From: an uncultured Clostridia bacterium
GTDB lineage: Bacteria; Bacillota; Clostridia; Christensenellales; QAND01
Reading direction: 5' to 3'
DNA: 64,000 bases
NCBI GenBank assembly: GCA_964533965.1
Contig: CAZHNN010000002.1
Span: forward strand, 107,538 to 171,537
Shown: positions 3,480-42,932 of the stretch, one piece after another
How the letters are laid out: each line of letters starts with the position of its first letter
Numbering within the stretch: position 1 is the first letter of the stretch
Notes under the pieces: generated by a model
Told to the model about the DNA's origin: nothing
What the model saw: only the letters and a program-made list of their open reading frames with translations
Database searches by the model: none
Translations under genes and position numbers: made by a program

Positions 3480-3486
3480 GTCAACA

Positions 3487-4999: not shown

Positions 5000-5112
5000 A
5001 AAAGTCCTCCAAAAAATAGATAGACATATTAACTAATATATCAGGAATGCAAAAACCCAACAAGTAAGCATATTGGTCGGATGTATTCCCTTATGCAAAT
5101 CTGTACGGCGCG

Positions 5113-5352
<240 letters not shown>

Positions 5353-5469
5353 CTATGATTTATACGCATATTGTTGATGATGAATTTGCTGTTAAGAAGT
5401 AATGAAGCTTTTCGTTTTCAGGATATTGAGATACAACGATTTGTCTTATCCGTGGCTATACAATTAGTT

Positions 5470-5991: not shown

Positions 5992-6318
5992 AATAATCTG
6001 CTCCCCCTATTTGATTGTTCTACTATAGTCTGGTCTATAAGACCCTTTTTAATTTATATTATCCATAACTGTACTCTCTTAATTTTTATTATATTATTAG
6101 CCTTTTTGGATTGTCAACAGTAAGCCGGACAGAACTTATTAGGTACAGGATCTCTTAAACTCAACTGGTGACAAGTATCCAAGCGTTCAATCCAAACGGA
6201 TATTGTTGAACAATGAACAGAATCGAATGACTCCAGCTGGAGTTGCAAGATCGGCTTATGATAAAGTTTGATACCATGTATCCAACTAAAACGGGATCGT
6301 TTATACCTTATGTTTGCA

Positions 6319-6346
6319 TAAAAAAAGTCCCGATTGCTCGGGACTT
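6319..6346 (-). terminator. rho-independent terminator of gap
   Basis: On the minus strand: AAGTCCCGAGCAATCGGGACTT followed by TTTTTTA. Confidence 0.8.
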
Positions 6347-6362
6347 TCTTTTTGGTTTAAAC

Positions 6363-7481
<1,119 letters not shown>

Positions 7482-7559
7482 TTACGCGGTTCAGTTTGCC
7501 CTCAGATACCCGTATCATGCGCATATGCATGCGCCTATTACTTCCATCTTCGCCAAAAC

Positions 7560-8654: not shown

Positions 8655-8664
8655 GGTTCCCTCC

Positions 8665-9777: not shown

Positions 9778-9844
9778 GATCAAATTCCTCCATCTATATA
9801 TTCTCTTACCCCAAATCATTGGAAAAGAGCTATACGCCCCTATG

Positions 9845-10813
9845 TTAGTTTGATTCCTCGGAAATTTTGGATGTCTTGCCGCCCTTGCGGTGGAACTCGT
9901 CCACGATGTACAGCGGCCTGTTCTTCGTCTCATCATAGACGCGCCCCAGGTAGTTCCCCATCAGTCCCATGAAAAGGAACAATATGCCGATGAGCAAATA
10001 CAGACCCGTCAGCGCAAACGATGTTGCCAGTATCTCCTGTCCCGTCAGCAACAGCACAAGCTGTACGATCAGCGCCACAAAGCTGCCGAATACGGTGAGC
10101 GTACCCAGGCGGGAGGCAAGCGTCAGCGGCTTGAACGAAAACGCATAGATGCCATCCATCGCAAGGCGCATCATCTGCTTGAAGCCATACTTCGTCTCGC
10201 CAGCGGCGCGCTGCTTGCGCTCAAACTCCACCGGCACCTGCGTAAAGCCGACCCAGCTGACCATGCCGCGCAAATACCGGTTATGCTCGCCCATCGAGAC
10301 GAGTTGATCGACCACCTTGCGGTCCATCAGCCGGAAATCGCCGGTATCCAGCGGCGCCTTGGTACCCGATAAAAAGCGGAACACGCGGTAGTACATGGCG
10401 CTTGTCATCTTCTTGAAAGCGGTTTCGCCTTCGCGGCTCTTGCGCTTGCCATAGACGATGTCGGCATCCCCTTGCTTCCATACCGCAGCCATCTCCGGAA
10501 TGACCTCGGGCGGATCCTGCAAGTCGGCATCGATCAATATTACTGCTTTGCCGCGTGAGGCGTCCAGCCCTGCGGATGACGCGGCTTGTTGCCCGAAGTT
10601 GCGCGAAAACGAGATCACCACCACGTGTTCATCTTTCTCATGGAGTTCCTTCAATACGGACAGCGTATCGTCCCGGCTTCCGTCGTTGACATAGATGATC
10701 TCATACGGTTCGTTCATGCCCTGCAGAACGCCAGTCAAGCGCTCGTGCGTCTGCGGCAGCACTTCCTGCTCATTAAAACAGGGAACAACGACCGAATAGA
10801 CAATAGTTGCCAA
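9845..10813 (-). CDS. GT2 family polyprenyl-phosphate glycosyltransferase (GtrB/ArnC-like)
   Basis: N-terminal VVVPCFNEQ..YVNDGSRD..DADLQDPPE GT-A motifs and two C-terminal TM helices. TTG start after GGAGGGAA. Confidence 0.85.
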   Translation of the reverse strand: MATIVYSVVVPCFNEQEVLPQTHERLTGVLQGMNEPYEIIYVNDGSRDDTLSVLKELHEKDEHVVVISFSRNFGQQAASSAGLDASRGKAVILIDADLQDPPEVIPEMAAVWKQGDADIVYGKRKSREGETAFKKMTSAMYYRVFRFLSGTKAPLDTGDFRLMDRKVVDQLVSMGEHNRYLRGMVSWVGFTQVPVEFERKQRAAGETKYGFKQMMRLAMDGIYAFSFKPLTLASRLGTLTVFGSFVALIVQLVLLLTGQEILATSFALTGLYLLIGILFLFMGLMGNYLGRVYDETKNRPLYIVDEFHRKGGKTSKISEESN

Positions 10814-10902
10814 TTCGTTCCCTCCTTACCGGATCATTATACCCTTTTCCTTGATAAATGAAAAGTCAAGTCAATGCAATCAAAGGATTGCACCTACGTG
10901 TA

Positions 10903-12336
10903 TCATGCTTCGGTAAACCGAGTCAAAAGCCCTGTCACGATCCGATACAGCCTATCCACCGATGGCAGATACAGCCATTCGTCCGGCGTATGCACATCGT
11001 GCTCCTCGGCGCCGGTTGCAATGATGTCCAGCTGCGGAGCCTTGCTGTACAGAAGGCCGCATTCAAGGCCTGCGTGGATGGCTTCGATGTTGATCTCGCT
11101 GCCAAAAAGCCCACGGTATACTTCCTGCAGGATTGTCCGCGCTTTGGAATCGGGGTTGTATTTCCATCCCGGATAACGGTTGTAGGCGCGCACGTCACAT
11201 AAAAACGCCTCTCCCAACAACCTCAGGCGGGTCTCGGTTTCATCCTGCTTGCTCTCCACGCTCGAGCGCGGTGAAAACGTGAACAGAACAACATTTCCTT
11301 GTGTCTTGATGATGCCCAGGTTGACCGAAGTCTCCACCAGATCTTCCATGCTGGGACTCATGGAGAGCACGCCGCTTGGCGCGATCATCAACAGCGATAC
11401 GATATCCTTCGTATCCTTGCTGCTCATCTGCTCTTTTACATCATCCGTTTTGTCGACTGTAACCTGGAACCCCTTGTCGGGTTCCCCAAGCTCCAATCGT
11501 ATCGTCTGTGCCATAGCCTTGGCTGCATCGATGAGTTCCACAGGATGCTGCGTTGTCAGAAGCACAAAGCATTCGCGCGGGATCGCATTCTCCTTGCTGC
11601 CGCCTTCGATGCTAACAAGATGGAACGGCGGAAGTGCCTGCAGGATGCGCCCCATCAGCTTGATGGAGTTGGCGCGGTGCCGGTTGATGCAGGAGCCGCT
11701 GTGCCCGCCCATCAGCCCCGTCAAAGAGATCTTAAGTGCCTCCCCGGACGCCTTTTCGGGCGCAATCCGCTTTGTCCAATCTACGCGCATGCCGCCGGCA
11801 CAGCTTACGATGGCGGTGTTCTCGGGCCCGGAATCAAGGTTGACCATGGTGGACGCCGTGATCCAACTCCCATCTACCGCATGGGCGCCTACGAGTCCTA
11901 CCTCTTCCTGCGATGTAAACAGGCATTCCAACGGCGGATGTACAAGCGTATCGTCCGCCAATATCGAAAGCATCATGGCGACCGCAACGCCGTTGTCAGC
12001 GCCTAGCGTCGTCCCGTTGGCCCGCAATTTGTCACCGTCAAGCACCAACTCGATCGGGTCTTTTTCAAAATCGTGCACGGTCGCCGCGTTCTTCTCACAC
12101 ACCATATCGGTGTGCCCCTGCAATAGCACGGCGGGAAGAGCTTGTTTATCCTTTGACCCCGGCTTTTTGATCATCACGTTATGGATCTGGTCGCGCAAGC
12201 AGGTCAATCCATGCTCTTTAGCAAACGCTTCCAGATAATCCGCGATGCCGGCTTCGTTGCCCGATCCGCGCGGGATGGCGCTGATCTTTGCAAAATAGAC
12301 AAAGAATTCCTTGGGTTCCCAATCTGACAATGTCAT
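10903..12336 (-). CDS. pepD: aminoacyl-histidine dipeptidase (M20C, PepD-like)
   Basis: PepD pattern (FAKISAIPRGSGNE.., LQGHTDMV, FTSQEEVGL). ATG at 12336 follows GGGAGGA, and the upstream part of the track ORF overlaps the neighbouring gene. Confidence 0.85.
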   Translation of the reverse strand: MTLSDWEPKEFFVYFAKISAIPRGSGNEAGIADYLEAFAKEHGLTCLRDQIHNVMIKKPGSKDKQALPAVLLQGHTDMVCEKNAATVHDFEKDPIELVLDGDKLRANGTTLGADNGVAVAMMLSILADDTLVHPPLECLFTSQEEVGLVGAHAVDGSWITASTMVNLDSGPENTAIVSCAGGMRVDWTKRIAPEKASGEALKISLTGLMGGHSGSCINRHRANSIKLMGRILQALPPFHLVSIEGGSKENAIPRECFVLLTTQHPVELIDAAKAMAQTIRLELGEPDKGFQVTVDKTDDVKEQMSSKDTKDIVSLLMIAPSGVLSMSPSMEDLVETSVNLGIIKTQGNVVLFTFSPRSSVESKQDETETRLRLLGEAFLCDVRAYNRYPGWKYNPDSKARTILQEVYRGLFGSEINIEAIHAGLECGLLYSKAPQLDIIATGAEEHDVHTPDEWLYLPSVDRLYRIVTGLLTRFTEA

Positions 12337-24291: not shown

Positions 24292-25467
24292 TTATTCTAC
24301 CGTCACCTTTTCGCAGGTGGCAAGTGCATACTCCGACCATTCGTTGCCGATGCCGGGCAACTCGGGCGGCGAGAACATGCCGCCTTCAGGCTGGTAGTCA
24401 TACTTGCACAGCTCCCGGTGGATCGGCGCCAAATTGTTCATATGGTTTTCATGGATTACGAAATTCGGGATGGAGCATTCCAGATGCAATGCCACCGCGG
24501 TAGAAAGCGGACTTGCACAAACGTGCGCCTGCACGCCGATGTCGTATGTGTGCGCCATGTCGCAGATCTTCTTGCCTTCGGTAAGCCCGCCGGTATTGCC
24601 CAGATCGGGCTGAATGACCTGCACAGAGAGGTTTTCAAAATACGGCATATACTGCCAACGGGTATACACACGCTCGCCCAGCGCAATCGGGATGTTCAAC
24701 TGGTCATGGATCTGCTTTGTCAGCTTTGGCGTAGGCGTATTGGGCTCTTCAAAGTAGAAGATATTGTACTTTTCCACGCGCTTTCCAATTTGCACGGAGG
24801 ATAGCGCGTCGGTATGCGAATGCATCTCCATGATTAAATCGCGCTTGGGACCTATGGCCTCGCGCACGGCCGCCACCCGTTCCTCGATCATATCCAAATA
24901 CCCTGCACCCAACAACCGCGTCCACTGTTCAACCCCCAGCTGTTTGCCGTTGCTGTCATAGGTGAAGAAGTCGAATTTCACTGCGTCGTACCCGTCCGCC
25001 ACGGCTTTTTTCGCCACGTTTGCGTAATCTTCCGTCTTGAAAGCAAGCGTGCGCTCCGGTCCCCAGCCAAACTGCAGCTGGCTTGCGTACGCACGCAGCT
25101 TATCGCGCCGCTTACCACCCAGAAGCTTATAAATAGGTACGCCAAAGAACTTTCCCTTGATGTCCCACAATGCGATGTCGATTGCGCTGATGCCCGCAAA
25201 TACCACGGGACCGCCGTTTTGGCCCCAAAATGTGCTCTTGTAAAGCTTGTCCCAGATAATCTCATGGTCCAGCGGATCCATGCCGATGATCAAGCGCGCC
25301 ATATCCTTTATCATGCCAAACGCTGCGGGAGCGCCGGTATGGATCGCCATCGCCGCTTCCCCGTCGCCATATAATCCCTCGTCGGTATAAACGCGGCATA
25401 CGACCGGCCGCAGCGCCGACGGAACCCTTGTTTTCAGCTGCATGACATCCACTTTGGTGATCTTCAT
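24292..25467 (-). CDS. enolase-superfamily enzyme, mandelate racemase/acid-sugar dehydratase type
   Basis: N-terminal capping domain (MKITKVDVMQLK..), then a barrel with the pattern typical of MR/galactonate-dehydratase-like proteins (..FDFF.., EEP, PIALGER). Specific substrate not assignable. Confidence 0.75.
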   Translation of the reverse strand: MKITKVDVMQLKTRVPSALRPVVCRVYTDEGLYGDGEAAMAIHTGAPAAFGMIKDMARLIIGMDPLDHEIIWDKLYKSTFWGQNGGPVVFAGISAIDIALWDIKGKFFGVPIYKLLGGKRRDKLRAYASQLQFGWGPERTLAFKTEDYANVAKKAVADGYDAVKFDFFTYDSNGKQLGVEQWTRLLGAGYLDMIEERVAAVREAIGPKRDLIMEMHSHTDALSSVQIGKRVEKYNIFYFEEPNTPTPKLTKQIHDQLNIPIALGERVYTRWQYMPYFENLSVQVIQPDLGNTGGLTEGKKICDMAHTYDIGVQAHVCASPLSTAVALHLECSIPNFVIHENHMNNLAPIHRELCKYDYQPEGGMFSPPELPGIGNEWSEYALATCEKVTVE

Positions 25468-30516: not shown

Positions 30517-30738
30517 TGCTGAACACCTCCTGATGGATTAAAAAGTCTGCACGATAAATAAAGCCCCCCTAAGGGGATTCCTGATAGAAGATACCATATA
30601 GACGGGTTGCTGTCAACGATTTTTTATAAGAGAAAGCGGCGTGCTCATCAAAAAATCCCGCATTTCAAGCGGCTTTTTCACTCGTTGCATTCTTATGATA
30701 TAATAAACGTAATAACTGTACAAGTTGGGGGAACGGTC

Positions 30739-31680
30739 ATGAAGCGACAGGCGTTTATCGATTATCTCACTGGCAAGCCCGCAAAGCGTATTCCCGGCTC
30801 TTTCTGGTTCCACAATACCGAGGAAAAATGGGAAGGTGAATCCGCGAAAAAGGCCCACCTCGATATGATCGAAGCCACAGACATCGATTTTTTGAAGATC
30901 ATGGACGAGATCCGCTTTACCTTCCCCGATATCAAAACGGCATCGGACTGGGATCATTACCTGCCGCCAAAGCGCAACGCCTGGCATTATGAAAAGCAGT
31001 TCGATGTGATCAAGAGGATCACCGACGCGATTGCCGGCGGCATGTTCACGTATACCACTATCTTCTCCCCGCTTCGCTGCGTCGGCATGCCCTGTGGGTA
31101 CGAGATGATTGAGACCCATATGGCGCAAAACCCGAAGGGCGTTGATAAGGCGTTTGCCGCAATGGCAGAGTCGCTTTCCCAGTATGCGGTCGATTGCATG
31201 GCCGCAGGTGCCGATTCGATCTATTTTTCAACAAAGGGCGCCGAGCACGGCCGATTCCCAAAAGAGGTGTTTGAAGCGATCGTGCTGCAGCATGACTTGG
31301 AATTGTTCAACGCAGTCTGCGAGGCGACGCCATACGCGATGCTGCACATCTGCGGCTTTGACATGGAGCTGCCATATTATTACAACTGGCCGGGAATGGC
31401 CGTGAACTGGGACGTACACAACAACACGCTCAAGCTGCATGAAGGGGCGAAGCTGTTCCGCCATCCCGTGCTGTGCGGCGGCATGGACGACAGGTCCGGT
31501 GAGCTTGTGGACGGATCCGACGAACAGGTCGAGCAGAAAGTGCAATCCGTCGTGGAATCGTTTTTGGCAGACAACTCCGGCAAGCGCATGATCTTGGGTG
31601 CCGACTGCACGCTGCCTACCGAAGTGGATTTTCACCGGATCCGCGTCGCATTGGCAAAGCTTCGGACCTATTCGCTATAA
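30739..31680 (+). CDS. uroporphyrinogen decarboxylase (URO-D) family protein, possibly a methyltransferase of the MtaA/CmuA type
   Basis: URO-D-like pattern over the full length. ATG 30739 (MKRQAF) follows GGGGGAA, and an extended -10 (TGATATAAT) lies at 30696-30704. Confidence 0.6.
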   Translation: MKRQAFIDYLTGKPAKRIPGSFWFHNTEEKWEGESAKKAHLDMIEATDIDFLKIMDEIRFTFPDIKTASDWDHYLPPKRNAWHYEKQFDVIKRITDAIAGGMFTYTTIFSPLRCVGMPCGYEMIETHMAQNPKGVDKAFAAMAESLSQYAVDCMAAGADSIYFSTKGAEHGRFPKEVFEAIVLQHDLELFNAVCEATPYAMLHICGFDMELPYYYNWPGMAVNWDVHNNTLKLHEGAKLFRHPVLCGGMDDRSGELVDGSDEQVEQKVQSVVESFLADNSGKRMILGADCTLPTEVDFHRIRVALAKLRTYSL

Positions 31681-32108: not shown

Positions 32109-32726
32109 ATGAAAGACGGTCTAATGGAATTGTTTACAGCCATCGAAGGGCATTTGCTTAAGGACGAGCGCCCCTCCGTTTACCTCGAGCACGCGGCGGA
32201 ACTGCCGGAATTTGGCAGCCATCCGTTCTTGATGCTGTTAAGGTTGAAGGGTTCGCCGCAGCCTCCCAAATACCACCCCGAAGGGGACGTGTGGAAACAT
32301 ACCATGCTGGTCATCGATGAGGCTGCCGAGCGCAGGGATCAAAGCAATGATGCGCGCACCTTCATGTGGGCGGCGCTGCTGCACGACCTTGGCAAGCCGG
32401 GCACGACGAAGATCAGGAACGGAAAGATCATCTCCTACGGGCATGACACGTTGGGCGCAAAATTGGCACGCGAGTTTTTGCAGTTCTTCAGCTGTGACGA
32501 GAGTTTCATTGAGGAAGTCGTGAAGCTTGTTCAATGGCACATGCAATTGCTCTACTTTGAAAAGTCGCTTCCATTTTTTAAAGAAGCGGAGCTACGGGAA
32601 AATGCAAACATCGATGACGTCGGACTGCTGAATCTGTGCGATAGGATCGGCAGGAAGAATTCGGATAAACAGCAGGAACAACAAAGAGTAGATCGGTTTG
32701 TTCGCAAACTAAAAGGCGATTCGTAA
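32109..32726 (+). CDS. HD domain-containing phosphohydrolase
   Basis: HPEGDVWKHT...ALLHDLGKP motifs. Confidence 0.75.
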   Translation: MKDGLMELFTAIEGHLLKDERPSVYLEHAAELPEFGSHPFLMLLRLKGSPQPPKYHPEGDVWKHTMLVIDEAAERRDQSNDARTFMWAALLHDLGKPGTTKIRNGKIISYGHDTLGAKLAREFLQFFSCDESFIEEVVKLVQWHMQLLYFEKSLPFFKEAELRENANIDDVGLLNLCDRIGRKNSDKQQEQQRVDRFVRKLKGDS

Positions 32727-32754
32727 AATCGCCTTTTTCTTTTTATAATTCTGT

Positions 32755-33006
32755 TTATAACGCAGCAAAGAAAGCCTTTAAATCCGCCTTGACATCCTGC
32801 GGCAGCAATGTGTCCCTAACACCGCGTACCGCTCCTTCCAGCCCGTAGAGCATGTGCAGGCAGGCAGTAGGGTCTAATAGACGGATGCGCATAAATGCCT
32901 GTTTGCTGCCAATCGCCCTCAAATCATCCGCCGTTTCAATACCGGCTTCCATCAACAGCTTTTCGGCTACCTTCCCGATGTTCGGCAATTGCTGCAACGA
33001 TCCCAT
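32755..33006 (-). CDS. TfoX C-terminal domain protein
   Basis: LQQLPNIGKVAEKLLMEAGIETADDLRAIG helix-hairpin-helix pattern of TfoX_C. ATG 33006 follows AAGGAGAA. Confidence 0.65.
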   Translation of the reverse strand: MGSLQQLPNIGKVAEKLLMEAGIETADDLRAIGSKQAFMRIRLLDPTACLHMLYGLEGAVRGVRDTLLPQDVKADLKAFFAAL

Positions 33007-33197
33007 ATTTTTTCTCCTTATATCATTCATTGAATACTTTTTTCTTTCCATTGTAATCTTAGTGTACAAGATAAATCCTGTAAATGCTAACTGATCACAG
33101 TGACTATATTGTACATATTATTCTTTCTTCTGCTTAATCCATCTGAAGGCTTAATTTTTCAATTGATGAAAGAATTGAACATTTTTCTATACATAAC

Positions 33198-33226
33198 TTG
33201 AATTTACAGTTGCAAATAACAATAAT
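33198..33226 (+). promoter_or_regulatory. candidate promoter of the enolase-like/kinase-like operon
   Basis: TTGAAT-N17-AATAAT in an AT-rich region about 80 nt upstream of 33307. Weak match. Confidence 0.3.
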
Positions 33227-33306
33227 ATAAATTGGAGATCGGACTAAGTCAAAAGCCCGAATGAAAAGCGAGTATCGTGCAAATTACTTCAAGGAGGAAG
33301 ACTGCC

Positions 33307-34596
33307 ATGTCAGGAACAGAGATCAAAAGCGTAACGGCGCGACAGGTGATGACCCGCAGGCACCATCCAGGTGTCGAAGCAACGGTAGTGACGGAGAATG
33401 GAGCAGAAGGCGTTGCCGTATGTACGGCGGGTGTCTCCGTCGGGACACACGAGATAAAATTCTCTTATGACGGCGGAGTCCGATGGGAAGGCAAAGGCGT
33501 ACAAGGCGCCGTAGACAACGCGAACAATGTGATCGCTCCCAAATTGATCGGGTTGAACTGCGCAAACCAATGGGCAATTGACCAGGCTATGCTGGATATA
33601 TGTCCTGACGCCAAAGTAACGCTGGGCGGCAATGCTGTTGCGGCGGTATCTGCAGCTGCACTGAAAGCGGGCGCCAAAGCCTTGGACATTCCGCTGTACC
33701 AGCATATCGGAGGGGCAAATGCAATGTATCTGCCCGTTCCCGGGATCATCGCGGCCATCGGCAGCGAGCGTTACGGCGGCGACGTCAGACGTTCAGGCGG
33801 CAAGCCCTCCTATGCCCTGATGTGCTACGGGTTCGATACATTTTCCGACGCTTCGTATGCCGGCTGGGAGCTGGATACAAAATGGCGCAAGGTATTAAGC
33901 GATAAGTTCGACCTTTCCGTCGGCGGCGGCGGAGCCGGCATGCCAAACTTCCCGAGGGGGCTCTTCAAGAGCGACCGCGAGATTTGGGATCTGATGGTGG
34001 ATACCATTGACAAGGCCGGATATAACGGCAAGGTAGGCATTCAAGTGGACATCGCCGCCGATACGTTCTACAACCAGGAAGACGGGATATATTACGGCCT
34101 GTTGAGCGCAGAACCCAAGACGCGCGACGATCTCTTGAGACTGTATGAAGAAATGGTTGCCAATTGGCCGTTTGTGGACATTGAAGATCCGTTCAACGAA
34201 AACGATTATGAAAGCCATGCGGAGCTGGTCAGGCGCGTTGACATCCAGATCGTTGGCGACGACCTGTTCACCACCAACCCCGAGCGCGTGGCATACGGCA
34301 TTTCAAAGGGCGCCGCAAACACCGTATTGCTCAAGGTTAACCAGGTTGGCACCATCACAGAGGCGCTGGAGATGATACAGCTGGCCTATAAGCACAACTA
34401 CGGCGTCATGCCTTGCGAGAGCCGAGGCGAAGGAGATGCGATCGCTGATTATTGCGTGGGCATCAACGCGGGATCGGTGAGAGAGAGCGCTATTGGCGAC
34501 GCAGGCAACCGCTTTTTGAAGATCGAGGCCGAGTTAGGCAGCCGCGCCAAGTTCATCGGTGCGAAAGGATTTAAGGGCAAACGGTTCCAAAGCTGA
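33307..34596 (+). CDS. divergent enolase-family protein A (not a canonical enolase)
   Basis: Collinear with enolase: AGVSVGTHE loop, VDIAADTFY, DIEDPF, IVGDDLFTTN, LLKVNQVGT. Signature SHRSGETED is replaced by PCESRGEGD and GDEGG by GGGGA. ATG after AAGGAGGAAG. Confidence 0.85.
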   Translation: MSGTEIKSVTARQVMTRRHHPGVEATVVTENGAEGVAVCTAGVSVGTHEIKFSYDGGVRWEGKGVQGAVDNANNVIAPKLIGLNCANQWAIDQAMLDICPDAKVTLGGNAVAAVSAAALKAGAKALDIPLYQHIGGANAMYLPVPGIIAAIGSERYGGDVRRSGGKPSYALMCYGFDTFSDASYAGWELDTKWRKVLSDKFDLSVGGGGAGMPNFPRGLFKSDREIWDLMVDTIDKAGYNGKVGIQVDIAADTFYNQEDGIYYGLLSAEPKTRDDLLRLYEEMVANWPFVDIEDPFNENDYESHAELVRRVDIQIVGDDLFTTNPERVAYGISKGAANTVLLKVNQVGTITEALEMIQLAYKHNYGVMPCESRGEGDAIADYCVGINAGSVRESAIGDAGNRFLKIEAELGSRAKFIGAKGFKGKRFQS

Positions 34597-34619
34597 AATA
34601 CTGCCAGGAGGGAACGACC

Positions 34620-36074
34620 GTGCGAATTAAAAATGCCACCGATCTGACCTCTCACGGGGACATAACAGGCCGTAGTGACATGGTAGCAATCCTTGAAGCA
34701 GGGCTACAGGCGGCCGACCCCTACAACAACACCAAACGGCTGATCAAACGCGAAGGCGACAAGCTTTATATCGGCAATACCGATTTCGAGGCGAATGACG
34801 ATCCGAGGAGCGGCATCGACGTCATTGACCTCCATCAAATCGACCGGATTTTCGTTGTGGGCGCAGGAAAGGGATCGCAGCGCGTAGGCCTTGCATTGGA
34901 AGAAGTGCTGGGCGAACACCTCACCGGCGGACATCTGATCGGCAAACACGGCGACGAGATCATCGTGAAGAAGATTGGCGTCACGCTGGCGGGACACCCG
35001 ACACCGGACGAATACTGCTGCATCGGCTGCCGCAGGATACTGGAATTTGCCAAAGATATAACCAATCGCGATCTTGTATTTACGGTGGGCGCCAACGGCT
35101 TCTCCTCGCTGCTAACGCTGCCGCCTGACGGCATCACGGTAGATGAAGTTAAAGAACTGACCTATATGATGCAGATTGAAAAGGGCGTAGCCACCGAAGA
35201 GCTGAACACCATCCGAAACCACATCGATCTGATGAAGGGCGGACGTTTCTCAAGGTATTTCGCTCCTGCAAAGATGGTGCATATCGAAGCCATCGATATC
35301 GGGAATGCGCGGGCTGGGGTCCACGCCAACTTCCACGATATGCTGAAAAACAACATCTGGCTTCACAATTTGTGCGAAGGTTCCACGTTTGAGGATGCGA
35401 TTAGAACCCTCAAATTCTGGGATGCTTGGGAGTTGACACCGCTGTCCATCCGGCGGCACCTCGAAGGGGCACGCCCCGAAGATGAAACAGTTAAATACGA
35501 CGAATTTATGAAAATGGATTTTCGAGTCTTTGGCATCATGCCGAAAGACAAAACGATTTTCCCCGCTGTCAAACAAAAGGCCGCGGAGTTGGGTTATACG
35601 CCTTATCTTTTCGCGGAATTTCTGCGATTGGAGGCAAGCCAAGCCGGGCTTGCCATATCCAACATAGCCTGCACCATCCAGGATGTCCATGAACCTGTGA
35701 GCCCTCCTTGCTGCCTGATTTCCGGCGGAGAATTACTGGTGACGGTCGGAGACGAACTGGGTGTAGGCGGCAGAAACCAGGAATACGTGCTGTCCGCAGC
35801 GCTGAATATCGGCGGGAGGAACATCGTGTTCGGTGCCGTCGACACGGACGGGACGGACGGTCCTGGCGGATACATCGCTAACGATGTTCCGGATTGCCTC
35901 GCCGGCGGCATCACAGACGGCTGCACACTCCAAGAGGCAAAGGAAAGGCGCGTGGATATACGCGAGGCGCTTAAAACCCATGCCACATCGAAAGCTCTTT
36001 GGGAACTCAAAAGCAGCATCCATGCTGAGCACAACATCAGCGTGGGCGATCTCGGCATCGTGCTCATTCGATAA
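34620..36074 (+). CDS. MOFRL/DUF4147 family glycerate 2-kinase-like protein A
   Basis: VVGAGKGSQRV N-terminal motif and C-terminal GGELLVTV..GVGGRNQEYVLSAAL..AVDTDGTDGPG, typical of class-II glycerate 2-kinases (TtuD/MOFRL). GTG start after AGGAGGGAA. Confidence 0.8.
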   Translation: MRIKNATDLTSHGDITGRSDMVAILEAGLQAADPYNNTKRLIKREGDKLYIGNTDFEANDDPRSGIDVIDLHQIDRIFVVGAGKGSQRVGLALEEVLGEHLTGGHLIGKHGDEIIVKKIGVTLAGHPTPDEYCCIGCRRILEFAKDITNRDLVFTVGANGFSSLLTLPPDGITVDEVKELTYMMQIEKGVATEELNTIRNHIDLMKGGRFSRYFAPAKMVHIEAIDIGNARAGVHANFHDMLKNNIWLHNLCEGSTFEDAIRTLKFWDAWELTPLSIRRHLEGARPEDETVKYDEFMKMDFRVFGIMPKDKTIFPAVKQKAAELGYTPYLFAEFLRLEASQAGLAISNIACTIQDVHEPVSPPCCLISGGELLVTVGDELGVGGRNQEYVLSAALNIGGRNIVFGAVDTDGTDGPGGYIANDVPDCLAGGITDGCTLQEAKERRVDIREALKTHATSKALWELKSSIHAEHNISVGDLGIVLIR

Positions 36075-36098
36075 TTAAGTCAAAGGGGGAACCCGCCG

Positions 36099-37562
36099 AT
36101 GGGCATTCTCAACATGCAGCAGCTCACTTCCCATGGCAACGTACGCGGCAGACAGGACGCTTTGTCGATTCTACAAGCGGCACTTGCAGCAGCCGATCCT
36201 TACCACAATGCGATGAACCTTCTGCGCCGTGAGGGCAACATGCTCTATATCGGCAATCCGGAATTTGAGGCAGAAAATGATCCGAATTCCGGTATCGAGA
36301 TAGTGGACCTTGACAAGATCGGCAGAATCTACGTCGTAGGTGCAGGCAAGGGCGTACAGCGTATTGCAAAAGCGATTGAAGATGTTCTGGGGGATCGTTT
36401 GACCGGTGGCCATGTGATCGGAAAGCACGGCGACGAGATCATCCTGACAAGGATCGGAGTGACGCTTGGCGGCCATCCGACCCCGGACGAATACTGCGCG
36501 CAGGGCTGCAGAAAGATATTAGAACTCGCAAAAGACATCAAGGAAAACGATTTGGTGTTCACTATCGCCGCAAATGGGGTAAGTTCCCTTCTTACACTGC
36601 CTGCGGACGGCATCACCATCGATGAGGTCAAGCAATTGACCCATATGATGCAGATCGAAAAGGGCGTTCCGACATACGATCTGAATACCATCCGCAATCA
36701 CATCGATCAGATGAAGGGCGGAAAGATCTCGCGTGCTTTTTATCCCGCCAGAATGATGCACATCGTGGCGATCGATGTCAACCGGTACAGCCTTATCAAT
36801 CCACGGCACGATTACTATCACCTGATGGAAACCAACCGCTGGCTTCACAACCTGCCGGAAGGCACCACATTTTCCGAGGCAGTGGATGTGTTGCATTACT
36901 ATGACGCTTGGAATTTGTGCCCAAAGTCCATCCGCGACTGTTTGACAAAGGCCGATCCCCGGAACGAGACGGTGAAGTTCGAGGAATTTTCCAAAATGAA
37001 TTTCCGGGTTTTCGGCATCATGCCCGAACATCTGCATTTCTTGCCCGTGGCGAAGCGCAAAGCGGAAGAACTGGGATATAAGGCGATCCATCTATGCGGC
37101 ATGCTGCAGGCCGAGGCTAAGGACGCTGCGCTTACCATCGGCGCCATCGCCCGAAGCGTTGAAGAGCGGGGCGAACCGTTCAAACCGCCCGTAGCGCTGT
37201 TTACAACAGGGGAACTTTTGGTAACGGTGAACCAGTATAAGGGCGTCGGCGGAAGAAACCAGGAGTATGTCTTGACGGCCGCCACCAAAATTGAGGGCAG
37301 CGAAAAGATCGTTTTTTGCGCTGTGGATACAGATGGCACGGACGGCCCCGGCGGGCTTAATTTACCGGGTGCGCCGAATTGCCTTGCGGGCGGCATAGCA
37401 GACGGTTTTCTTCTGCGGGACGCCAGGGAGATAGGGGTGGACGTCCGCGAGGCACTCAAGACCCACGCCACATCGGAAGCACTTTGGAGACTCGACAGCG
37501 GCATCCATACGAGCCAAAACATCAGCCTTTGCGATCTGGGCATTGTGCTGGTGATGGCATAA
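36099..37562 (+). CDS. MOFRL/DUF4147 family glycerate 2-kinase-like protein B
   Basis: Paralogue of 34620-36074 with the same motifs (VVGAGKGVQRI, GVGGRNQEYVLTAAT, AVDTDGTDGPG). SD AAAGGGGGAA. Confidence 0.8.
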   Translation: MGILNMQQLTSHGNVRGRQDALSILQAALAAADPYHNAMNLLRREGNMLYIGNPEFEAENDPNSGIEIVDLDKIGRIYVVGAGKGVQRIAKAIEDVLGDRLTGGHVIGKHGDEIILTRIGVTLGGHPTPDEYCAQGCRKILELAKDIKENDLVFTIAANGVSSLLTLPADGITIDEVKQLTHMMQIEKGVPTYDLNTIRNHIDQMKGGKISRAFYPARMMHIVAIDVNRYSLINPRHDYYHLMETNRWLHNLPEGTTFSEAVDVLHYYDAWNLCPKSIRDCLTKADPRNETVKFEEFSKMNFRVFGIMPEHLHFLPVAKRKAEELGYKAIHLCGMLQAEAKDAALTIGAIARSVEERGEPFKPPVALFTTGELLVTVNQYKGVGGRNQEYVLTAATKIEGSEKIVFCAVDTDGTDGPGGLNLPGAPNCLAGGIADGFLLRDAREIGVDVREALKTHATSEALWRLDSGIHTSQNISLCDLGIVLVMA

Positions 37563-37593
37563 ATCATTCCAAACATTCAAAGGAGACGGTAAA

Positions 37594-38880
37594 ATGTCAG
37601 CGAAGACGATCAAGTCGGTCTGGGCAAGAGAAGTGTACACCCGCCGCGGTCATCCCGGAGTGGAGGCCATTGTCGTGACGCAGAGCGGTGCACAGGGCCG
37701 TGCAGTTTGCACATCGGGTATCTCCATCGGCACGCACGAGGTCAAGTTCAATCTGGACGGCGGCAAGAAGTGGAACGGTAAGGGCGTCATGGGCGCCGTA
37801 AATAATGTGAAGAACATCATAGCACCGGTACTCATCGGCATGGATGCCACCAAACAGTTCGAAATAGACAACGCGATGCTCGGCATTTGCGAAAACCCCA
37901 AGGGCAATATAGGCGGCAACGCGATCGCTGCGGTTTCCGCTGCTGCCCTCAAAGCGGGCGCAAAGGCGCTGGATATTCCGCTGTACCAGCACATCGGCGG
38001 CGCCAATGCGATGTATCTGCCGGTGCCTGGCGCGCCCGCTATGGCGGGCAACGAGCGCTTCGGCGGCGGCGTGACAACGCCCGGTGCCAAGCCGACGTAT
38101 TCATTCATGTGCTACGGATTTGACCGGTATTCCGACGCTTCCTACGCCTGCTGGGAAATCTACCAGGTGTGGAGCAAGCTGATGATGAAGAACAACTATT
38201 TCCTCTATCCGGGTTCAACTAATTTCTTTGGTATGCCGCCGGGCGCCATCGAGACCGACGAGCAGTTATGGGAGATGATGGCGGATACCATCCGAAAAGC
38301 GGGCTATGAGGGCAAGGCAGGTATCCAGTGTGACTGTGCTTCGGATACCTACTATGACCGTGACGAGAAACTCTACAAGGGACTCTTCACAAAAAAGGAC
38401 AAGAACCGCGACGAGATGCTCGAACTGTACGTCAACGCCGTCAAGAACTATCCGTTTGTCATCCTCGAGGATCCGTTTTATGAGGACGACTACGAAAGCC
38501 ACGCACTGCTCAGGCAGTCTGTTGACATTCAGATCGTCGGTGACGACCTTTTTACCACCAACCCCGAACGTGTCGCATACGGCGTCTCAAAAGGTGCCGC
38601 AAACACTGTTCTGTTGAAGGTCAACCAAGTCGGCACCATCACCGAGTCGCTTGAGATGATCCAGCTGGCTTACAAACACGGCTATGGCGTCATGCCGTGT
38701 GAGAGCCGCGGTGAGGGCGATTCCATCGCGGATTACAGCGTCGGAATCAACGCCGGATCCATCCGCGAGTGCGGCATCGGCGACATCGCCAACCGTTTCC
38801 TCGAAATCGAGATGGAACTTGGTTCCAGTGCCAAGTTCATCGGCGCAAAGGGTCTTAAGGGCAAACGCTTCGAAAAGTAA
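37594..38880 (+). CDS. divergent enolase-family protein B
   Basis: Paralogue of 33307-34596 with the same retained and lost motifs. SD AAAGGAGA. Confidence 0.85.
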   Translation: MSAKTIKSVWAREVYTRRGHPGVEAIVVTQSGAQGRAVCTSGISIGTHEVKFNLDGGKKWNGKGVMGAVNNVKNIIAPVLIGMDATKQFEIDNAMLGICENPKGNIGGNAIAAVSAAALKAGAKALDIPLYQHIGGANAMYLPVPGAPAMAGNERFGGGVTTPGAKPTYSFMCYGFDRYSDASYACWEIYQVWSKLMMKNNYFLYPGSTNFFGMPPGAIETDEQLWEMMADTIRKAGYEGKAGIQCDCASDTYYDRDEKLYKGLFTKKDKNRDEMLELYVNAVKNYPFVILEDPFYEDDYESHALLRQSVDIQIVGDDLFTTNPERVAYGVSKGAANTVLLKVNQVGTITESLEMIQLAYKHGYGVMPCESRGEGDSIADYSVGINAGSIRECGIGDIANRFLEIEMELGSSAKFIGAKGLKGKRFEK

Positions 38881-38930
38881 GAACAAGAAAAAGGCCGCCA
38901 ATTGGCAGCCTACATCGCGTCTATCATCGG

Positions 38931-38969
38931 AAAAGCTCCGCCTATGCTCTTGCACAGGCGGAGCTTTTT
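38931..38969. terminator. bidirectional hairpin terminator between the eno-like operon and the AEC permease gene
   Basis: AAAGCTCCGCC..14-nt loop..GGCGGAGCTTT, flanked by A and T runs. Confidence 0.6.
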
Positions 38970-38993
38970 GAATACGTTTTGCCTTCGGATATG

Positions 38994-39944
38994 TCAGTTT
39001 AGAGTGGATAGAACAAGCGTCCACAAAGGCAGCGTTAGGATCGAAAAAACCGTTGAAACGAGCACGGATTTCGCGCAACTGCTCACATCCGATTTGAAAT
39101 TCAACGCAAAGACGACGGCGCTTGACGCTGTGGGCATCGCGCAATACAGGATGGAAATATTCCGTACAAGCGGATCGATGTTTACCATACGCAACAACAG
39201 CAGCGCAAGAAACGGAGCCACCGCAAGTCTGACAAAAGTTTGAAACAGAATCTTCTTGTCCAAAAAGGCATCCTTGAAACCCTTCTGCGGAAGTGCCAAT
39301 CCCGATATGATCATTCCAAGCGGTGAGGCTGTAGCGGCCAATATCGAAATTGTTTTTGAAACGAAAAATGGTAGCGGGATCCTTAAAAAATAGATGCATA
39401 GGCCGATCGGTACGGACAGGACCGCGGGATTGATCAAGGCCTTTTTAATATTGCTCAGTATATATTGCCTTTTTTGTGCTTTGTCCTTCATTGTACCGAT
39501 GCCTTTGATGAGAAAGCCGCTGAGAATATAGTACGATATTCGAATGGGCACCGTAAAAATGGATATATAGAAAAGGCCTTTTTGTCCGTATAAAGCCTCC
39601 ATCACGGGAAACGCCATATACGTAAAATTCGGATAAATGATGCCAAAGCGCAATACCTGGGCTTTATCGCCTGCACACTTGGTCAGTCGATTCATGAGGG
39701 TTCCGACGAAGAACATGACGACCAATGAAACTGAGGCAATGATGACCAAATCGACGATGTTTATTATATCGTTCGTTGCACTTTCCAATCGCATCGAGTT
39801 TATGATCATCGCCGGAAAGATGAATTTGAAAACCAGTGAAGATAGCGAACTTAAGAAATTAGCATCCACCACTTTAAATCTGTTGGCAAAAAAGCCAATG
39901 CACATGCAAATCAATAAAATCAACGCAAAATTCAGCGCGTTCAT
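38994..39944 (-). CDS. AEC (auxin efflux carrier) family permease
   Basis: About 10 TM helices with the Mem_trans-like pattern. ATG 39944 (MNALNF) follows AAAGGGGA, and the track ORF overshoots by 82 codons. AT-rich. Confidence 0.8.
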   Translation of the reverse strand: MNALNFALILLICMCIGFFANRFKVVDANFLSSLSSLVFKFIFPAMIINSMRLESATNDIINIVDLVIIASVSLVVMFFVGTLMNRLTKCAGDKAQVLRFGIIYPNFTYMAFPVMEALYGQKGLFYISIFTVPIRISYYILSGFLIKGIGTMKDKAQKRQYILSNIKKALINPAVLSVPIGLCIYFLRIPLPFFVSKTISILAATASPLGMIISGLALPQKGFKDAFLDKKILFQTFVRLAVAPFLALLLLRMVNIDPLVRNISILYCAMPTASSAVVFALNFKSDVSSCAKSVLVSTVFSILTLPLWTLVLSTLN

Positions 39945-40031
39945 GTTTTTATCCCCTTTTTCCTGCCATACTTTGAGCATACACATTAGCACTAAATATC
40001 TATCAATTCTTTTCATTAATTGGTTATTTGT

Positions 40032-40059
40032 TTGCAAATATTGAGATATCCCGTACAAT
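40032..40059 (+). promoter_or_regulatory. candidate promoter of the AraC-family gene
   Basis: TTGCAA-N16-TACAAT about 30 nt upstream of the ATG at 40090. Confidence 0.4.
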
Positions 40060-40089
40060 ATTAGAGGAGATCTCTGAAAGGAGAAGACA

Positions 40090-40938
40090 ATGGATAGCTT
40101 ACAATCTGCCAAACCACGCAATAGGAATATATTTTTTAGGTATAGCTCGGATATGAACTGGAAGATGGATAAATACCATTTCCACGACATGTACGAAGTT
40201 TATTATTCATTAACCAACAATGTTGATATTTTTGTGAACGATGTCATCTATCAGGTGTCAAAAGGTACGATTTTGGTTTTCAATACTGCGGATATCCATA
40301 GGACCATACCTTTGGATAAAACTCCATACAATCGATTTATCATTCATTTTAACCCCGAATATATGAAAGATCTTTGCACTGCCCAGACCGATCTTTTGGA
40401 TTGCTTTATCAATCGCGGACCGCAATTTAACCACAGCCTCCATCTTGATTCTGAACAGATGGAGCAATTCGCAGCCTTGGTCGATAAAGCCAAGCGCTAT
40501 CAAAGCAATGCGTTGTATGGCCAAGATATTTATCTTAAGCTCACGCTTGCCGAAATACTCCTTTTTATCAATCCGCTATATCAGGATAGCATCCGGTGTT
40601 TTTCGCAAAAAAGCAAAAGGGAATTCGAAAGAATATATCCGATTCTTCAGCATATTCAGACAAACATTTCAGACAACCTCTCTCTGGACAGTTTGTCCGA
40701 AAGATATTTCATCAATAAATTTTACCTGATAAACCTTTTTAAAAAAGCCACCGGATTCACTATTACCGAATATATCATTCAGACAAGGATCATGAAGGCA
40801 TGCGAACTATTGAAAAGAGGGCTGTCTGTACAGCAGGTTGGCGAGCTGGTTGGGTTTAACGACAACTCGCATTTTATCCGCACTTTTAAAAAGCATGTCG
40901 GCTTGCCGCCCAAACGGTACGCACAGCAATTCATATAG
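40090..40938 (+). CDS. AraC family transcriptional regulator (cupin sensor plus HTH)
   Basis: N-terminal AraC-binding cupin pattern (YHFHDMYEVYY) and C-terminal double HTH (..FNDNSHFIRTFKKHVGLPP). SD AAAGGAGAAG. Confidence 0.85.
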   Translation: MDSLQSAKPRNRNIFFRYSSDMNWKMDKYHFHDMYEVYYSLTNNVDIFVNDVIYQVSKGTILVFNTADIHRTIPLDKTPYNRFIIHFNPEYMKDLCTAQTDLLDCFINRGPQFNHSLHLDSEQMEQFAALVDKAKRYQSNALYGQDIYLKLTLAEILLFINPLYQDSIRCFSQKSKREFERIYPILQHIQTNISDNLSLDSLSERYFINKFYLINLFKKATGFTITEYIIQTRIMKACELLKRGLSVQQVGELVGFNDNSHFIRTFKKHVGLPPKRYAQQFI

Positions 40939-41113
40939 ATAGTCTCAAACACGAAAGTGATGGGCAAGTCAGGTCAAAGCGCTGCTTTGTGGCGTCTTGG
41001 GTAAACGGGAGCTGAGAAAAACTTTTATTAAACCGTTTAATATGATATAATAGAATACAATTGAGGAGTATTCCGTTATCACATGCAGGATTTTGCAGTT
41101 GGGAGGTATTGAG

Positions 41114-41299
41114 ATGAAAATTCCGACAGAGATAAAAGGCCGTAAGTGTTACGATCATCTGGGCGGTAAACTGGGGTCAGCCCTATTTGATTTTTACCTC
41201 CAAAACGGATGGATTACCTTGGAAGAAGGCAAGTCGACGGTCTATGCACTCACCGAGAAAGGCAAAGCAGAATTCGAGAAGATGGGTGTAAAGTTCTAA
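41114..41299 (+). CDS. small winged-helix protein (ArsR-family C-terminal-like)
   Basis: CYDHLGGKLGSALFD..GWI.....Y.LTEKGK pattern. ATG 41114 follows GGGAGG. Confidence 0.5.
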   Translation: MKIPTEIKGRKCYDHLGGKLGSALFDFYLQNGWITLEEGKSTVYALTEKGKAEFEKMGVKF

Positions 41300-41383
41300 C
41301 AATTGAGAAAGCAAAGGAAAAACGTCACCAAATGGGTACTTTCGTCTTTTTTACTGTATAAACAGAGCTCATGGGCATTATTC

Positions 41384-41410
41384 AAAAGGGACCGCAAGTG
41401 CGGTCCCTTT
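41384..41410. terminator. bidirectional rho-independent terminator
   Basis: AAAA-GGGACCGC-AAGT-GCGGTCCC-TTT between convergent genes. Confidence 0.8.
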
Positions 41411-41417
41411 CTACAAC

Positions 41418-42932
41418 CTATTTCCTATAGCTCCCAATCGATCCGCTATCCTTCAAAACGACGTCATGTGCGCCGCCCTCGACGATGCTGGTGGCGGAGA
41501 CGAGCGTCAACCTTGCCTTTTGCTGCAGCTCGGGAACGGTTACAGCCCCGCAGTTGCACATCGTAGAGCGCACTTTGCCCAGCGTAAGCCCAACGTTGTC
41601 CTTGAGGCTTCCGGCATAGGGCACATAGGAATCCACGCCTTCTTCAAACGAAAGACCCTGTGACCCGCCCAGGTCATATCGCTGCCAGTTGCGTGCGCGG
41701 TTACTGCCTTCGCCCCAGTATTCCTTCATATAGCTGCCGTTGATGACCACCCTATTTGTCGGGCTCTCGTCAAAACGGGCAAAATAGCGGCCCAGCATCA
41801 GGAAATCCGCACCCATCGCCAGCGCCAGCGTCACATGGTGGTCGTGCACGATGCCGCCGTCGGAGCAAACCGGGATATAGACACCCGTCTGTTCGTAGTA
41901 GAGATTTCTTGCCTGGCATACGTCGATCAACGCCGTGGCTTGTCCACGCCCGATGCCCTTCTGCTCGCGCGTGATGCAGATGGACCCTCCACCGATGCCG
42001 ACTTTCACAAAATCCGCGCCGGCGTTTGCCAAAAATCGGAATCCCTCGCCGTCCACCACGTTTCCAGCGCCGCATTTTACGCTATCGCCGTACTTCTCGC
42101 GGATGAATGCAAGCGTTTGTTGCTGCCATTCGGAAAACCCTTCGGAGGAATCTATGCAGAGCACATCCGCTCCCGCTTCGACCAGCGCGGGCACACGGTC
42201 TTTGTAATCGCGCGTGTTGATGCCTGCGCCAACGACATACCGTTTCTGCTCGTCCAGAAGTTCAAGCGGGTTGCTCTTATGCGATTCATAGTCCTTGCGA
42301 AACACGAGATATAAGAGGTTGCCATCGTCGTCCACGATGGGCAGCGTGTTTAGCTTGTGATCCCAGATGATGTCGTTTGCCCGGCTCAGCGTGGTGTTCT
42401 TGGGCGCATAGATTAAATCCTTGAGCGGCGTCATGAATTCCGAGACCTTCGTGTCCAATGACATGCGGCTAACACGGTAATCGCGGCTTGTAACGATGCC
42501 CAGCAGCTTGCCGTTTGTACTGGCGTCGGATGTCACTGGCACCGTGCTGTGCCCGGTCTTATCCTTGAGCTTGAGGACGTCCTGCAACGTCATATCCGGG
42601 CTCACGTTGGAATCCGACACCACGAACCCCGCCTTGTACGCCTTGGCACGGGCCACCATCGCAGCCTGGCTCTGAATGCTCTGCGAACAATAGATGAACG
42701 CGATGCCGCCCTCCTTAGCAAGCGACACCGCCATCTTTTCGTCCGAAACGGACTGCATGATGGCGGAGGTGAGAGGTATATTCATATGAAGCGCCGCTTC
42801 TTCGCCTTTTTTATATTTCACGACAGACGTGCGCAAACTTACGTTGGACGGTATGCATTTCGCCGAGGAGTACCCCGGGATCAACAGGTATTCGTTGAAG
42901 GTTCTCGAAGGTTCATCAAAATAGTACGCCAT
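41418..42932 (-). CDS. guaB: IMP dehydrogenase family protein with CBS pair
   Basis: IMPDH barrel with catalytic loop [20 protein letters not shown] and an inserted CBS domain pair. Confidence 0.75.

Follow-up and report, generated by a model that had tools for sequence, protein, structure and literature searches.

What does a bacterium gain from a locus that encodes, side by side and twice over, an enolase-like protein and a protein of the glycerate 2-kinase type? The question is raised by a stretch of 64,000 nucleotides (referred to as the window) from an uncultured Clostridia bacterium (NCBI GenBank assembly GCA_964533965.1, contig CAZHNN010000002.1, forward-strand positions 107,538 to 171,537). 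An initial annotation had described four closely spaced, co-directional genes in the order enolase-like, kinase-like, kinase-like, enolase-like. The list of open reading frames (ORFs) and a Pfam profile search confirm this description, with enolase domains in the outer genes and DUF4147 and MOFRL domains in the inner ones (the two gene types are abbreviated ENO and MOF). Judged by their residues, the two ENO proteins are not canonical enolases, and in the genomes compared such proteins form a conserved two-gene module with MOFRL kinases.

The four genes lie on the forward strand. Two of them, enoA (33307-34596; 429 aa) and enoB (37594-38880; 428 aa), encode variant enolase-family paralogues, each with the Enolase_N and Enolase_C domains (E-values 1e-31 to 1e-54). 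Between them, mofA (34620-36074; 484 aa, GTG start) and mofB (36099-37562; 487 aa) encode paralogous long MOFRL/DUF4147 kinase-type proteins. The gaps in the cassette are 23, 24, and 31 nt, and each gene does have its own strong Shine-Dalgarno sequence (in gene order AGGAGG, AGGAGGG, AAGGGGG, and AAGGAG), 6-9 nt before the start. BLASTP gives full-length identities of 66% for enoA and enoB and 60% for mofA and mofB; the divergence of the paralogues thus stands, while the earlier by-eye estimates (60-65% and 55-60%) were slightly low. No third enolase homologue is present within the 64-kb window.

Active site of the variant enolase family

Residues were surveyed in an alignment of 121 family members with the yeast and E. 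coli enolases (yeast numbering), and scored further in the enolase-family ORFs of 80 related loci and in a 20-sequence alignment (A1). The metal ligands D246, E295, and D320 and the loop serine S39 are invariant in all 121 family sequences, enoA and enoB included. The catalytic base K345 is invariant as well, the sole exceptions being the degenerate second copies in clusters with the order ENO-ENO-MOF. Other positions are changed throughout the alignment: H159 is always Arg, Q167 always Pro, R374/S375 always Ser/Arg, and K396 always Arg; E168 is Ser or Thr, and H373 is Ser, Asp, or Glu. Three arginines are gained in this way, at the positions of H159, S375, and K396, and R374 itself becomes Ser. 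In place of the GDEGG segment, with its general acid E211, there is a variable stretch, which in enoA and enoB lacks any acidic residue. Moreover, four residues are inserted just ahead of the E168 position, and one of them is an invariant Lys (K166 in enoA); other new invariant residues are RY155-156, Y184, W187, W193, Q246, R373, R392-E393, and R402 (enoA numbering). With few exceptions, the enolase-family ORFs of the 80 loci show the same residue pattern.

The yeast enolase mutants E211Q and E168Q are reported (Poyner et al. 1996) to be down about 10^5-fold in activity. Because all the residues by which enolase handles the C3 hydroxyl (E168, E211, H373, and Q167) are gone, and yeast mutants at E168 and E211 lose activity, the whole C3-hydroxyl side of the pocket reads as rebuilt, and the carboxylate, phosphate, and metal sites as kept or conservatively changed. 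The proteins have the barrel, the three carboxylate metal ligands, and the base for the carboxylate alpha-proton that are typical of the enolase superfamily. What they lack of an enolase proper are the C3-OH-side residues E211 (the general acid), E168, and H373, the substrate-binding residues H159, Q167, R374/S375, and K396, and a score above the enolase equivalog cutoff. On the NCBI model TIGR01060 (cutoff 300 bits), enoA scores 292.9 and enoB 291.3 bits, both just under the cutoff; the variant family as a whole scores 291-330 bits, as against 513-567 for canonical-like enolases encoded beside MOFRL genes and 663 for the Methanocaldococcus enolase. Since the acid-side catalytic residues are missing family-wide, it is unlikely that enoA and enoB serve as spare enolases for D-2-phosphoglycerate (D-2-PG). 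Some variant proteins pass the TIGR01060 cutoff (330 vs 300 bits for the protein encoded at 9995-11269 of locus L044) though they have neither E168 nor E211.

The fold itself appears ordinary. The AlphaFold2 model of enoA is confident as a whole (predicted local distance difference test 87.8, predicted template modelling score 0.89), but confidence is low in two places, the S39 loop and residues 206-210, which form the segment equivalent to that of E211. Foldseek searches with this model return normal enolases only, with a template modelling (TM) score of 0.88 and at most 37% identity. Structure searches by sequence and by Foldseek found no solved structure within the variant family, the nearest being ordinary enolases.

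The degenerate copies form a group apart. In the ENO-ENO-MOF clusters (L045, L048, L050, L051, L058, L062, and L063), the second ENO protein has V, A, or S in place of K345, its metal ligands are sometimes lost, and its TIGR01060 score is 165-182 bits. These sequence features suggest that the second copy is probably a non-catalytic partner subunit of an active variant enolase.

Pairing with long MOFRL kinases

A protein search with enoA gave 5430 matches at E <= 1e-30, a number in which canonical enolases may be counted. The best 120 of these are 61-70% identical to enoA (its own entry, P0001, at 100% aside), and the source-named members among the 120 matches listed belong to Clostridiales, Anaerolineae, and Thermodesulfobacteriota. 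The 80 related loci, which were taken from species-representative genomes and whose ORFs were called and then clustered, add Chloroflexota, Spirochaetes, Victivallales, and archaeal metagenome-assembled genomes (MAGs) labelled Nitrososphaeria. A variant ENO gene was called in 62 loci. It directly adjoins a MOFRL gene in 40 of them, and 10 more have a MOFRL gene in the same cluster (50/62 in total); the remaining 12 have none, and five of these are cut by contig ends. In several more loci an antisense ORF was called at the ENO position, yet a MOF gene adjoins the tblastn match. The MOFRL kinase and the variant enolase are therefore a real, conserved two-gene module, as the initial annotation had supposed, and the pairing recurs both in Clostridia and beyond. 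No description of the module or the family was found in the full-text literature; the same search bears out the earlier remark that no characterised pathway has this composition.

With lengths of 480-500 aa, the MOFRL partners form one coherent family; the sources name them "glycerate 2-kinase" or "DUF4147 protein". The core MOFRL motifs are kept in MofA, MofB, and these partners, and are common to the kinases found beside canonical-like archaeal enolases. The closest solved structures to mofB are PH0495 and TM1585. On two glycerate 2-kinase equivalogs (cutoffs 550 and 670), the MOFRL pair of the window scores 78-113 bits (MofA, 91 bits); these equivalogs are lineage-specific archaeal models, so that a score below cutoff is a weak test. 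On NF041176, the MOFRL partners score 91-115 bits vs 212-229 for the kinases beside canonical-like archaeal enolases.

Such canonical-like enolases, with E168, E211, R374, S375, and K396 present (513-567 bits), adjoin shorter MOFRL genes in Hadarchaeota, Bathyarchaeia, a Nitrososphaeria-labelled MAG, and one Anaerolineae MAG; the archaeal pairs include L076, L078, and L079. This combination looks like the ancestral pair of a non-phosphorylative Entner-Doudoroff branch. In locus L044 (positions 1971-11269), from a Nitrososphaeria-labelled archaeal MAG, a canonical-like ENO with a short MOFRL gene and a variant ENO with a long MOFRL gene are both present within 7 kb. Their active sites are very different, which argues that the two pairs have two different jobs. 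The L044 pairs adjoin genes for an FGGY kinase and a NiFe-hydrogenase subunit.

Copies of the module are often multiplied. A Christensenellaceae MAG has the same ENO-MOF-MOF-ENO order (L001), with orthologue identities of 81-82% for enoA, 75% for mofA, 80% for mofB, and 85% for enoB. The same MAG has two more loci, one ENO-MOF (L002) and one ENO-ENO-MOF (L072), and thus five ENO-like and four MOF genes in total. Another relative (L086/L087) has MOF-MOF-ENO in the same chromosomal backbone as the window, with orthologues of mofA, mofB, and enoB and no enoA. A tandem array of MOF-MOF-MOF-ENO-ENO-ENO is present on a 177-kb contig (L088, 10001-18457; ENA ERZ27297473); upstream of it are genes for an AP_endonuc_2 isomerase-like protein, an aldo-keto reductase-ferredoxin fusion, a class II aldolase, and a fucose-isomerase-like protein. 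The closest relatives of EnoA and MofA are the products of the L002 pair (70% and 68%), and each A copy is as distant from its B counterpart as it is from copies belonging to other phyla. This distance, together with the retention of both copies at 75-85% identity in the related MAG, agrees with the earlier proposal of an old, diverged duplication. The mirror order of the cassette is likewise present, but the special event that it seemed to call for is not needed. Both orders occur separately elsewhere, so the mirror order can be read as an ENO-MOF module beside a MOF-ENO module. A simple inverted duplication is rejected as the explanation, in view of these separate modules and of the relative with MOF-MOF-ENO.

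Surroundings of the cassette and of related loci

Next to the cassette are a gene for an AEC-family permease (38994-39944, reverse strand; 316 aa, Pfam Mem_trans), which converges on enoB, and, divergent from it, a gene for an AraC regulator with a cupin domain (40090-40938, forward strand; Pfam/profile match). Both had been noted before, as had their AT-richer composition (41% G+C vs 54.7% in the cassette). A longer form of the permease ORF, of 398 aa (38994-40190, reverse strand), would overlap the start of the AraC gene; an NCBI protein record has a 347-aa form, homologues are 312-325 aa long, and the start at 39944, which gives 316 aa, is the one with the better Shine-Dalgarno sequence, GGAAAAAGGGG. 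Two hairpins are present between enoB and the permease gene, at 38892-38911 and 38931-38969, with a folding energy of -43.7 kcal/mol for 38885-38995 (RNAfold). The one at 38931-38969 is the terminator already proposed, and it is real, with a T-run; the other comes in addition, and the two are likely bidirectional terminators. The leader 5′ of enoA is 237 nt long and AT-rich (32% G+C). It includes a promoter-like site, TTGAAT-17-AATAAT (33198-33226, forward strand), from a consensus scan only, in which the count of such sites is not above shuffle expectation. A scan of 32500-41500 gave no Rfam match to a riboswitch or leader RNA.

The initial annotation regarded these six genes as an inducible locus, in which the substrate enters by way of the AEC permease and the cassette is induced by the AraC regulator. 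The genes are adjacent, the permease gene converges on enoB with shared terminators, and AraC-type regulators are found in other ENO/MOF clusters. The relatives tell a different story. The backbone rplL...nusG-secE-rpmG, URO-D-like, HD, TfoX, then a slot, then IMPDH-glmM-trxB-rpsI, is conserved in them, and the content of the slot varies. In the window (32755-41417) it holds ENO-MOF-MOF-ENO and AEC-AraC; in L001, a P-type ATPase gene, ENO-MOF-MOF-ENO, and a FeoB-like gene; in L086/L087, MOF-MOF-ENO only; and in L090, a P-type ATPase gene and AEC-AraC without the cassette, the AEC protein being 86% identical. Flanked by TfoX_C/HD and IMPDH, this slot is a hot spot of changing content, with a heavy-metal P-type ATPase among its fillers. 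No AEC homologue or matching AraC homologue was found in the 80 related loci, and AEC homologues of 60% identity are found in unrelated contexts, one of them adjoining thiamine-salvage genes. Because the cassette occurs without AEC/AraC (L001, L086/L087) and vice versa (L090), the AEC and AraC genes are an independent AT-rich insertion that travels together, not a conserved part of the cassette. A joint import locus of six genes is thus improbable, and this part of the earlier reading finds no support in the comparison with relatives.

Two other genes of this region may be mentioned. A gene at 30733-31680 (forward strand), in the backbone of all relatives, encodes a URO-D family protein with weak similarity to the methylcobamide:CoM methyltransferase MtaA. 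About 8 kb upstream of the cassette, beyond ribosomal protein genes, an MR_MLE acid-sugar dehydratase homologue is encoded (24292-25467, reverse strand), whose best matches are gluconate/galactonate dehydratase (232 bits, below cutoff). It is conserved in the relative L086, there between two SDR genes and a TetR gene, and MR_MLE genes recur beside the ENO/MOF module in other phyla.

In other genomes, the module is usually accompanied by aldolases, aldehyde dehydrogenases, 2-hydroxy-acid racemases or dehydrogenases, and carboxylate transporters. The first type of cluster, in gut and rumen Clostridia, begins with genes for Ldh_2, KDPG aldolase, SDR, aldo-keto reductase, MOF, and ENO, and continues after ENO with aldehyde dehydrogenase, a PfkB kinase, an isomerase-like protein, class II aldolase, SDR, and DUF4867. 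Its isomerase-like protein has no Pfam match, and its sole NCBIfam match is SftI, at 95 bits. A second type (Hungatella hathewayi, Enterocloster lavalensis, and others) has the order ENO, Liv-type ABC transporter, LarA-type isomerase, MOF, and SorC, the isomerase being a nickel-pincer enzyme of NCBIfam group 22. A third type, in spirochaetes and Eubacteriaceae, has GntR, MR_MLE acid-sugar dehydratases, D-2-hydroxyacid dehydrogenase, an FAH-family hydrolase (second-best match, 2,4-didehydro-3-deoxy-L-rhamnonate hydrolase), a TAXI-TRAP transporter, ENO, a second degenerate ENO, and MOF. Elsewhere the neighbours are DHDPS-type aldolases, FGGY kinases, DctPQM with 2-hydroxyacid dehydrogenase, or aldehyde:ferredoxin oxidoreductase. 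Recurrent partners overall are aldehyde dehydrogenases, aldolases, MR_MLE proteins, FAH hydrolases, Ldh_2, 2-Hacid_dh, LarA isomerases, and carboxylate transporters of the TRAP, TAXI, and ABC types. A Pfam scan of 79 further neighbours found no dominant extra partner, and none of the 25 most frequent of its 116 families is related to sulfur. The DctP, Liv-type, and TAXI binding proteins of the related loci match only distant PDB relatives, and so give no transporter ligand. Some operons are minimal (L003, L014, L021, and L034) and encode only a transporter, a racemase or dehydrogenase, MOF, and ENO. The shared logic suggests a pathway that would end in a small 2-hydroxy acid, sometimes stereo-inverted, which is phosphorylated and passed to the ENO-like enzyme. 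In some lineages the module lies outside sugar-acid clusters: in peat metagenome contigs of the Thermodesulfobacteriota type (L082-L085), a DUF2148 ferredoxin-domain gene is followed by MOF-ENO, with no catabolic neighbours.

Proposed function and comparison with known systems

The explanation that we favour, with about even confidence, is that the cassette holds two diverged copies of a module in which the kinase makes a 2-phospho acid and the ENO-like enzyme converts it to phosphoenolpyruvate (PEP) or D-2-PG, the AEC and AraC genes being unrelated to it. By family membership, the long MOFRL protein would belong to the class II glycerate 2-kinase type and would use ATP to phosphorylate the 2-hydroxyl of glycerate or a close analogue. 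This hydroxy acid would be imported, or would be the end product of non-phosphorylative breakdown of a sugar or sugar acid. The conserved residues suggest that the ENO-like protein then binds the 2-phospho-carboxylate at a two-Mg2+ site (S39, D246, E295, and D320), and that the lysine corresponding to yeast K345 takes the C2 proton. Thereafter the C3 substituent may be eliminated or C2 inverted, giving PEP or D-2-PG. Such a product would explain why kinase and ENO travel together and why minimal operons exist; these operons encode no further enzyme, and the product should therefore be a central metabolite.

The substrate would be a 2-phospho acid that the housekeeping enolase cannot use, because the kinase coupling is strict and the C3 side is rebuilt, and because D-2-PG would go to the housekeeping enolase. 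A first guess is the L-enantiomer of 2-phosphoglycerate (L-2-PG), or else an analogue substituted at C3. Several considerations favour L-2-PG. Aldolase and diketo-hydrolase routes for L-sugar acids should yield L-glyceraldehyde or L-glycerate. Class II kinases already accept L-glycerate (PMC2063504). A mirror-image substrate would require the faces of base and acid to be swapped, which would fit the loss of E168 and E211 and the presence of Lys166. Locus L044 would then encode one D-pair and one L-pair. Other substrates (3-sulfolactate, tartrate isomers, and longer aldonates) are possible and ranked below L-2-PG. The two pairs here, and up to three elsewhere, most likely differ in substrate or stereoisomer specificity.

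Several points weigh against this proposal. The genomic context fits ordinary D-glycerate equally well. Another general acid (the invariant E393 of enoA, or the Asp or Glu at the H373 position) could in principle restore enolase chemistry, and K166 is placed on the C3-hydroxyl side of the pocket by its sequence position, not by coordinates. The idea of an L-enantiomer also leaves unexplained the four or five pairs in one genome and the LarA-type racemases that co-occur with the module.

The main competitor is redundant glycerate salvage, in which D-glycerate 2-kinases and true enolases with some other general acid would increase the flux from glycerate to PEP. The context fits the logic of a non-phosphorylative Entner-Doudoroff route (aldolase, aldehyde dehydrogenase, glycerate kinase, and enolase), canonical-like enolases are paired with MOFRL kinases in archaea, the metal ligands and K345 are kept, and some family members score above the TIGR01060 cutoff. 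We nonetheless regard this alternative, though a real one, as unlikely, given that E168, E211, and H373 are gone in the 121 family sequences and in every locus copy with the variant signature, and that the corresponding E211Q and E168Q changes in yeast reportedly cost about 10^5-fold. The canonical-like and variant pairs occur together in L044, and a single genome can have up to five ENO-like and four MOF genes; strict pairing would, moreover, be needless if the product were ordinary 2-phosphoglycerate (2-PG).

Two further alternatives involve other substrates. In the aldonate route, which we consider quite improbable, a C4-C6 aldonate would be phosphorylated to a 2-phospho-aldonate, converted by the ENO-like enzyme to a phosphoenol-3-deoxy acid, and dephosphorylated to a 2-keto-3-deoxy acid for an aldolase. 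The C3 pocket cleared of bulky residues and the new invariant aromatics (Y156, Y169, Y184, W187, W193, and W227), typical of sugar-binding sites, would suit such substrates, as many paralogues would suit many diastereomers; moreover, Eda and a KDG-kinase-like PfkB are encoded in the gut-Clostridia cluster, where no sugar-acid dehydratase can be recognised. Dehydration would still need a general acid, however; neither a pyruvate-kinase-like enzyme nor a phosphatase is conserved nearby in the related loci, no aldolase is encoded in the minimal operons or in the window, and MR_MLE dehydratases co-occur in other loci. More improbable still is a sulfolactate route, in which the MOFRL kinase would phosphorylate 3-sulfolactate and the ENO-like enzyme would run the ComA reaction backwards, forming PEP from 2-phospho-3-sulfolactate by elimination of sulfite. 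Sulfite leaves readily, with no need of a general acid, and extra arginines would bind the sulfonate, in line with the acid residues lost and the arginines gained. The gut-Clostridia cluster also encodes a distant homologue of the sulfoquinovose isomerase SftI (95 bits), DUF4867 (the SftX family), a PfkB kinase, a class II aldolase, and a GabD-like aldehyde dehydrogenase, and the best NCBIfam match of Ldh_2 is L-sulfolactate dehydrogenase (239 bits, below cutoff). All sulfur-related matches, however, are far below their cutoffs (SftI, 95 vs 700; sulfolactate dehydrogenase, 239 vs 500). No sulfoquinovosidase (GH31) was found among the neighbours scanned for families, and in the 79-protein census the 25 commonest of the 116 families include no sulfite exporter or reductase. 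In half of the variant family the H373 position is occupied by Asp or Glu, an arrangement unfavourable beside a sulfonate, and DUF4867 is mostly found in ordinary aldose/ketose contexts (PMC11968277). A sulfoquinovose lead drawn from DUF4867 and the SftI-like matches was rejected as too weak, DUF4867 being mainly found in general ketose contexts.

The enolase subgroup is reportedly regarded as single-function in the Gerlt/Babbitt literature. The chance that the two-step module proposed here involves new chemistry within this subgroup is substantial. A bolder version, which we offer tentatively and with slightly less than even confidence, is that the variant family has the first non-enolase function of the subgroup and works as a mirror-image enzyme or with two bases, Lys343 facing the new Lys166. 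Together with its kinase, it would bring L-glycerate or another hydroxy acid (3-sulfolactate or a tartrate isomer) into lower glycolysis, and the arrays would tune specificity. The sources name family members phosphopyruvate hydratase or "enolase C-terminal domain-like", and the former name is probably a systematic misannotation. With a large, multi-phylum family, a remodelled active site, and a dedicated kinase, thousands of genes are probably misannotated. The family would also exemplify the natural relocation of acid/base machinery in an enzyme of the enolase fold. Its occurrence implies a missing step in anaerobic catabolism of sugar acids and hydroxy acids, including that of gut and rumen Clostridia, and, if the proposal is true, a widespread and undescribed route into lower glycolysis in anaerobic bacteria and archaea. 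What would be new is a glycerate-kinase and enolase step with a re-engineered enolase-family partner.

The closest known system for the second step is enolase. The variant proteins share its two-domain fold (TM score 0.88 to the M. jannaschii and B. subtilis enolases, 33-37% identity), its Mg2+ ligands, the loop serine, and the catalytic lysine. They differ from it by H159R, Q167P, E168S/T, R374S/S375R, and K396R, by the absence of E211 and a variable H373, by the four-residue insertion with its invariant Lys, by an equivalog score below cutoff, and in being almost always encoded beside a MOFRL kinase. ComA, the (2R)-phospho-3-sulfolactate synthase, uses Mg2+-stabilised enolate chemistry on a 2-phospho-3-substituted propanoate, with PEP as the partner. 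It belongs to a different protein family and offers only a possible mechanistic analogy with the ENO-like step, a lead and not a membership. For the first step, the comparison is with the class II MOFRL glycerate 2-kinases (the Thermoproteus tenax enzyme, TM1585, and PH0495). The window proteins share their DUF4147 and MOFRL architecture and core motifs (PDB matches 1X3L and 2B8N, at E = 1e-61 and 7.5e-49), but are about 35-50 residues longer, with conserved insertions and low equivalog scores. The characterised class II kinases yield 2-PG and use L-glycerate at 13-34% of the rate with D-glycerate (PMC2063504). At the level of the pathway, the likeness is to the lower branch of the archaeal non-phosphorylative Entner-Doudoroff route, from glyceraldehyde by way of glycerate and 2-PG to PEP (PMC2063504), with which the module shares the logic of aldolase, aldehyde oxidation, MOFRL kinase, and an enolase-family enzyme. 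Here, in contrast, both partners are derived variants, multiplied per genome and spread through anaerobic bacteria.

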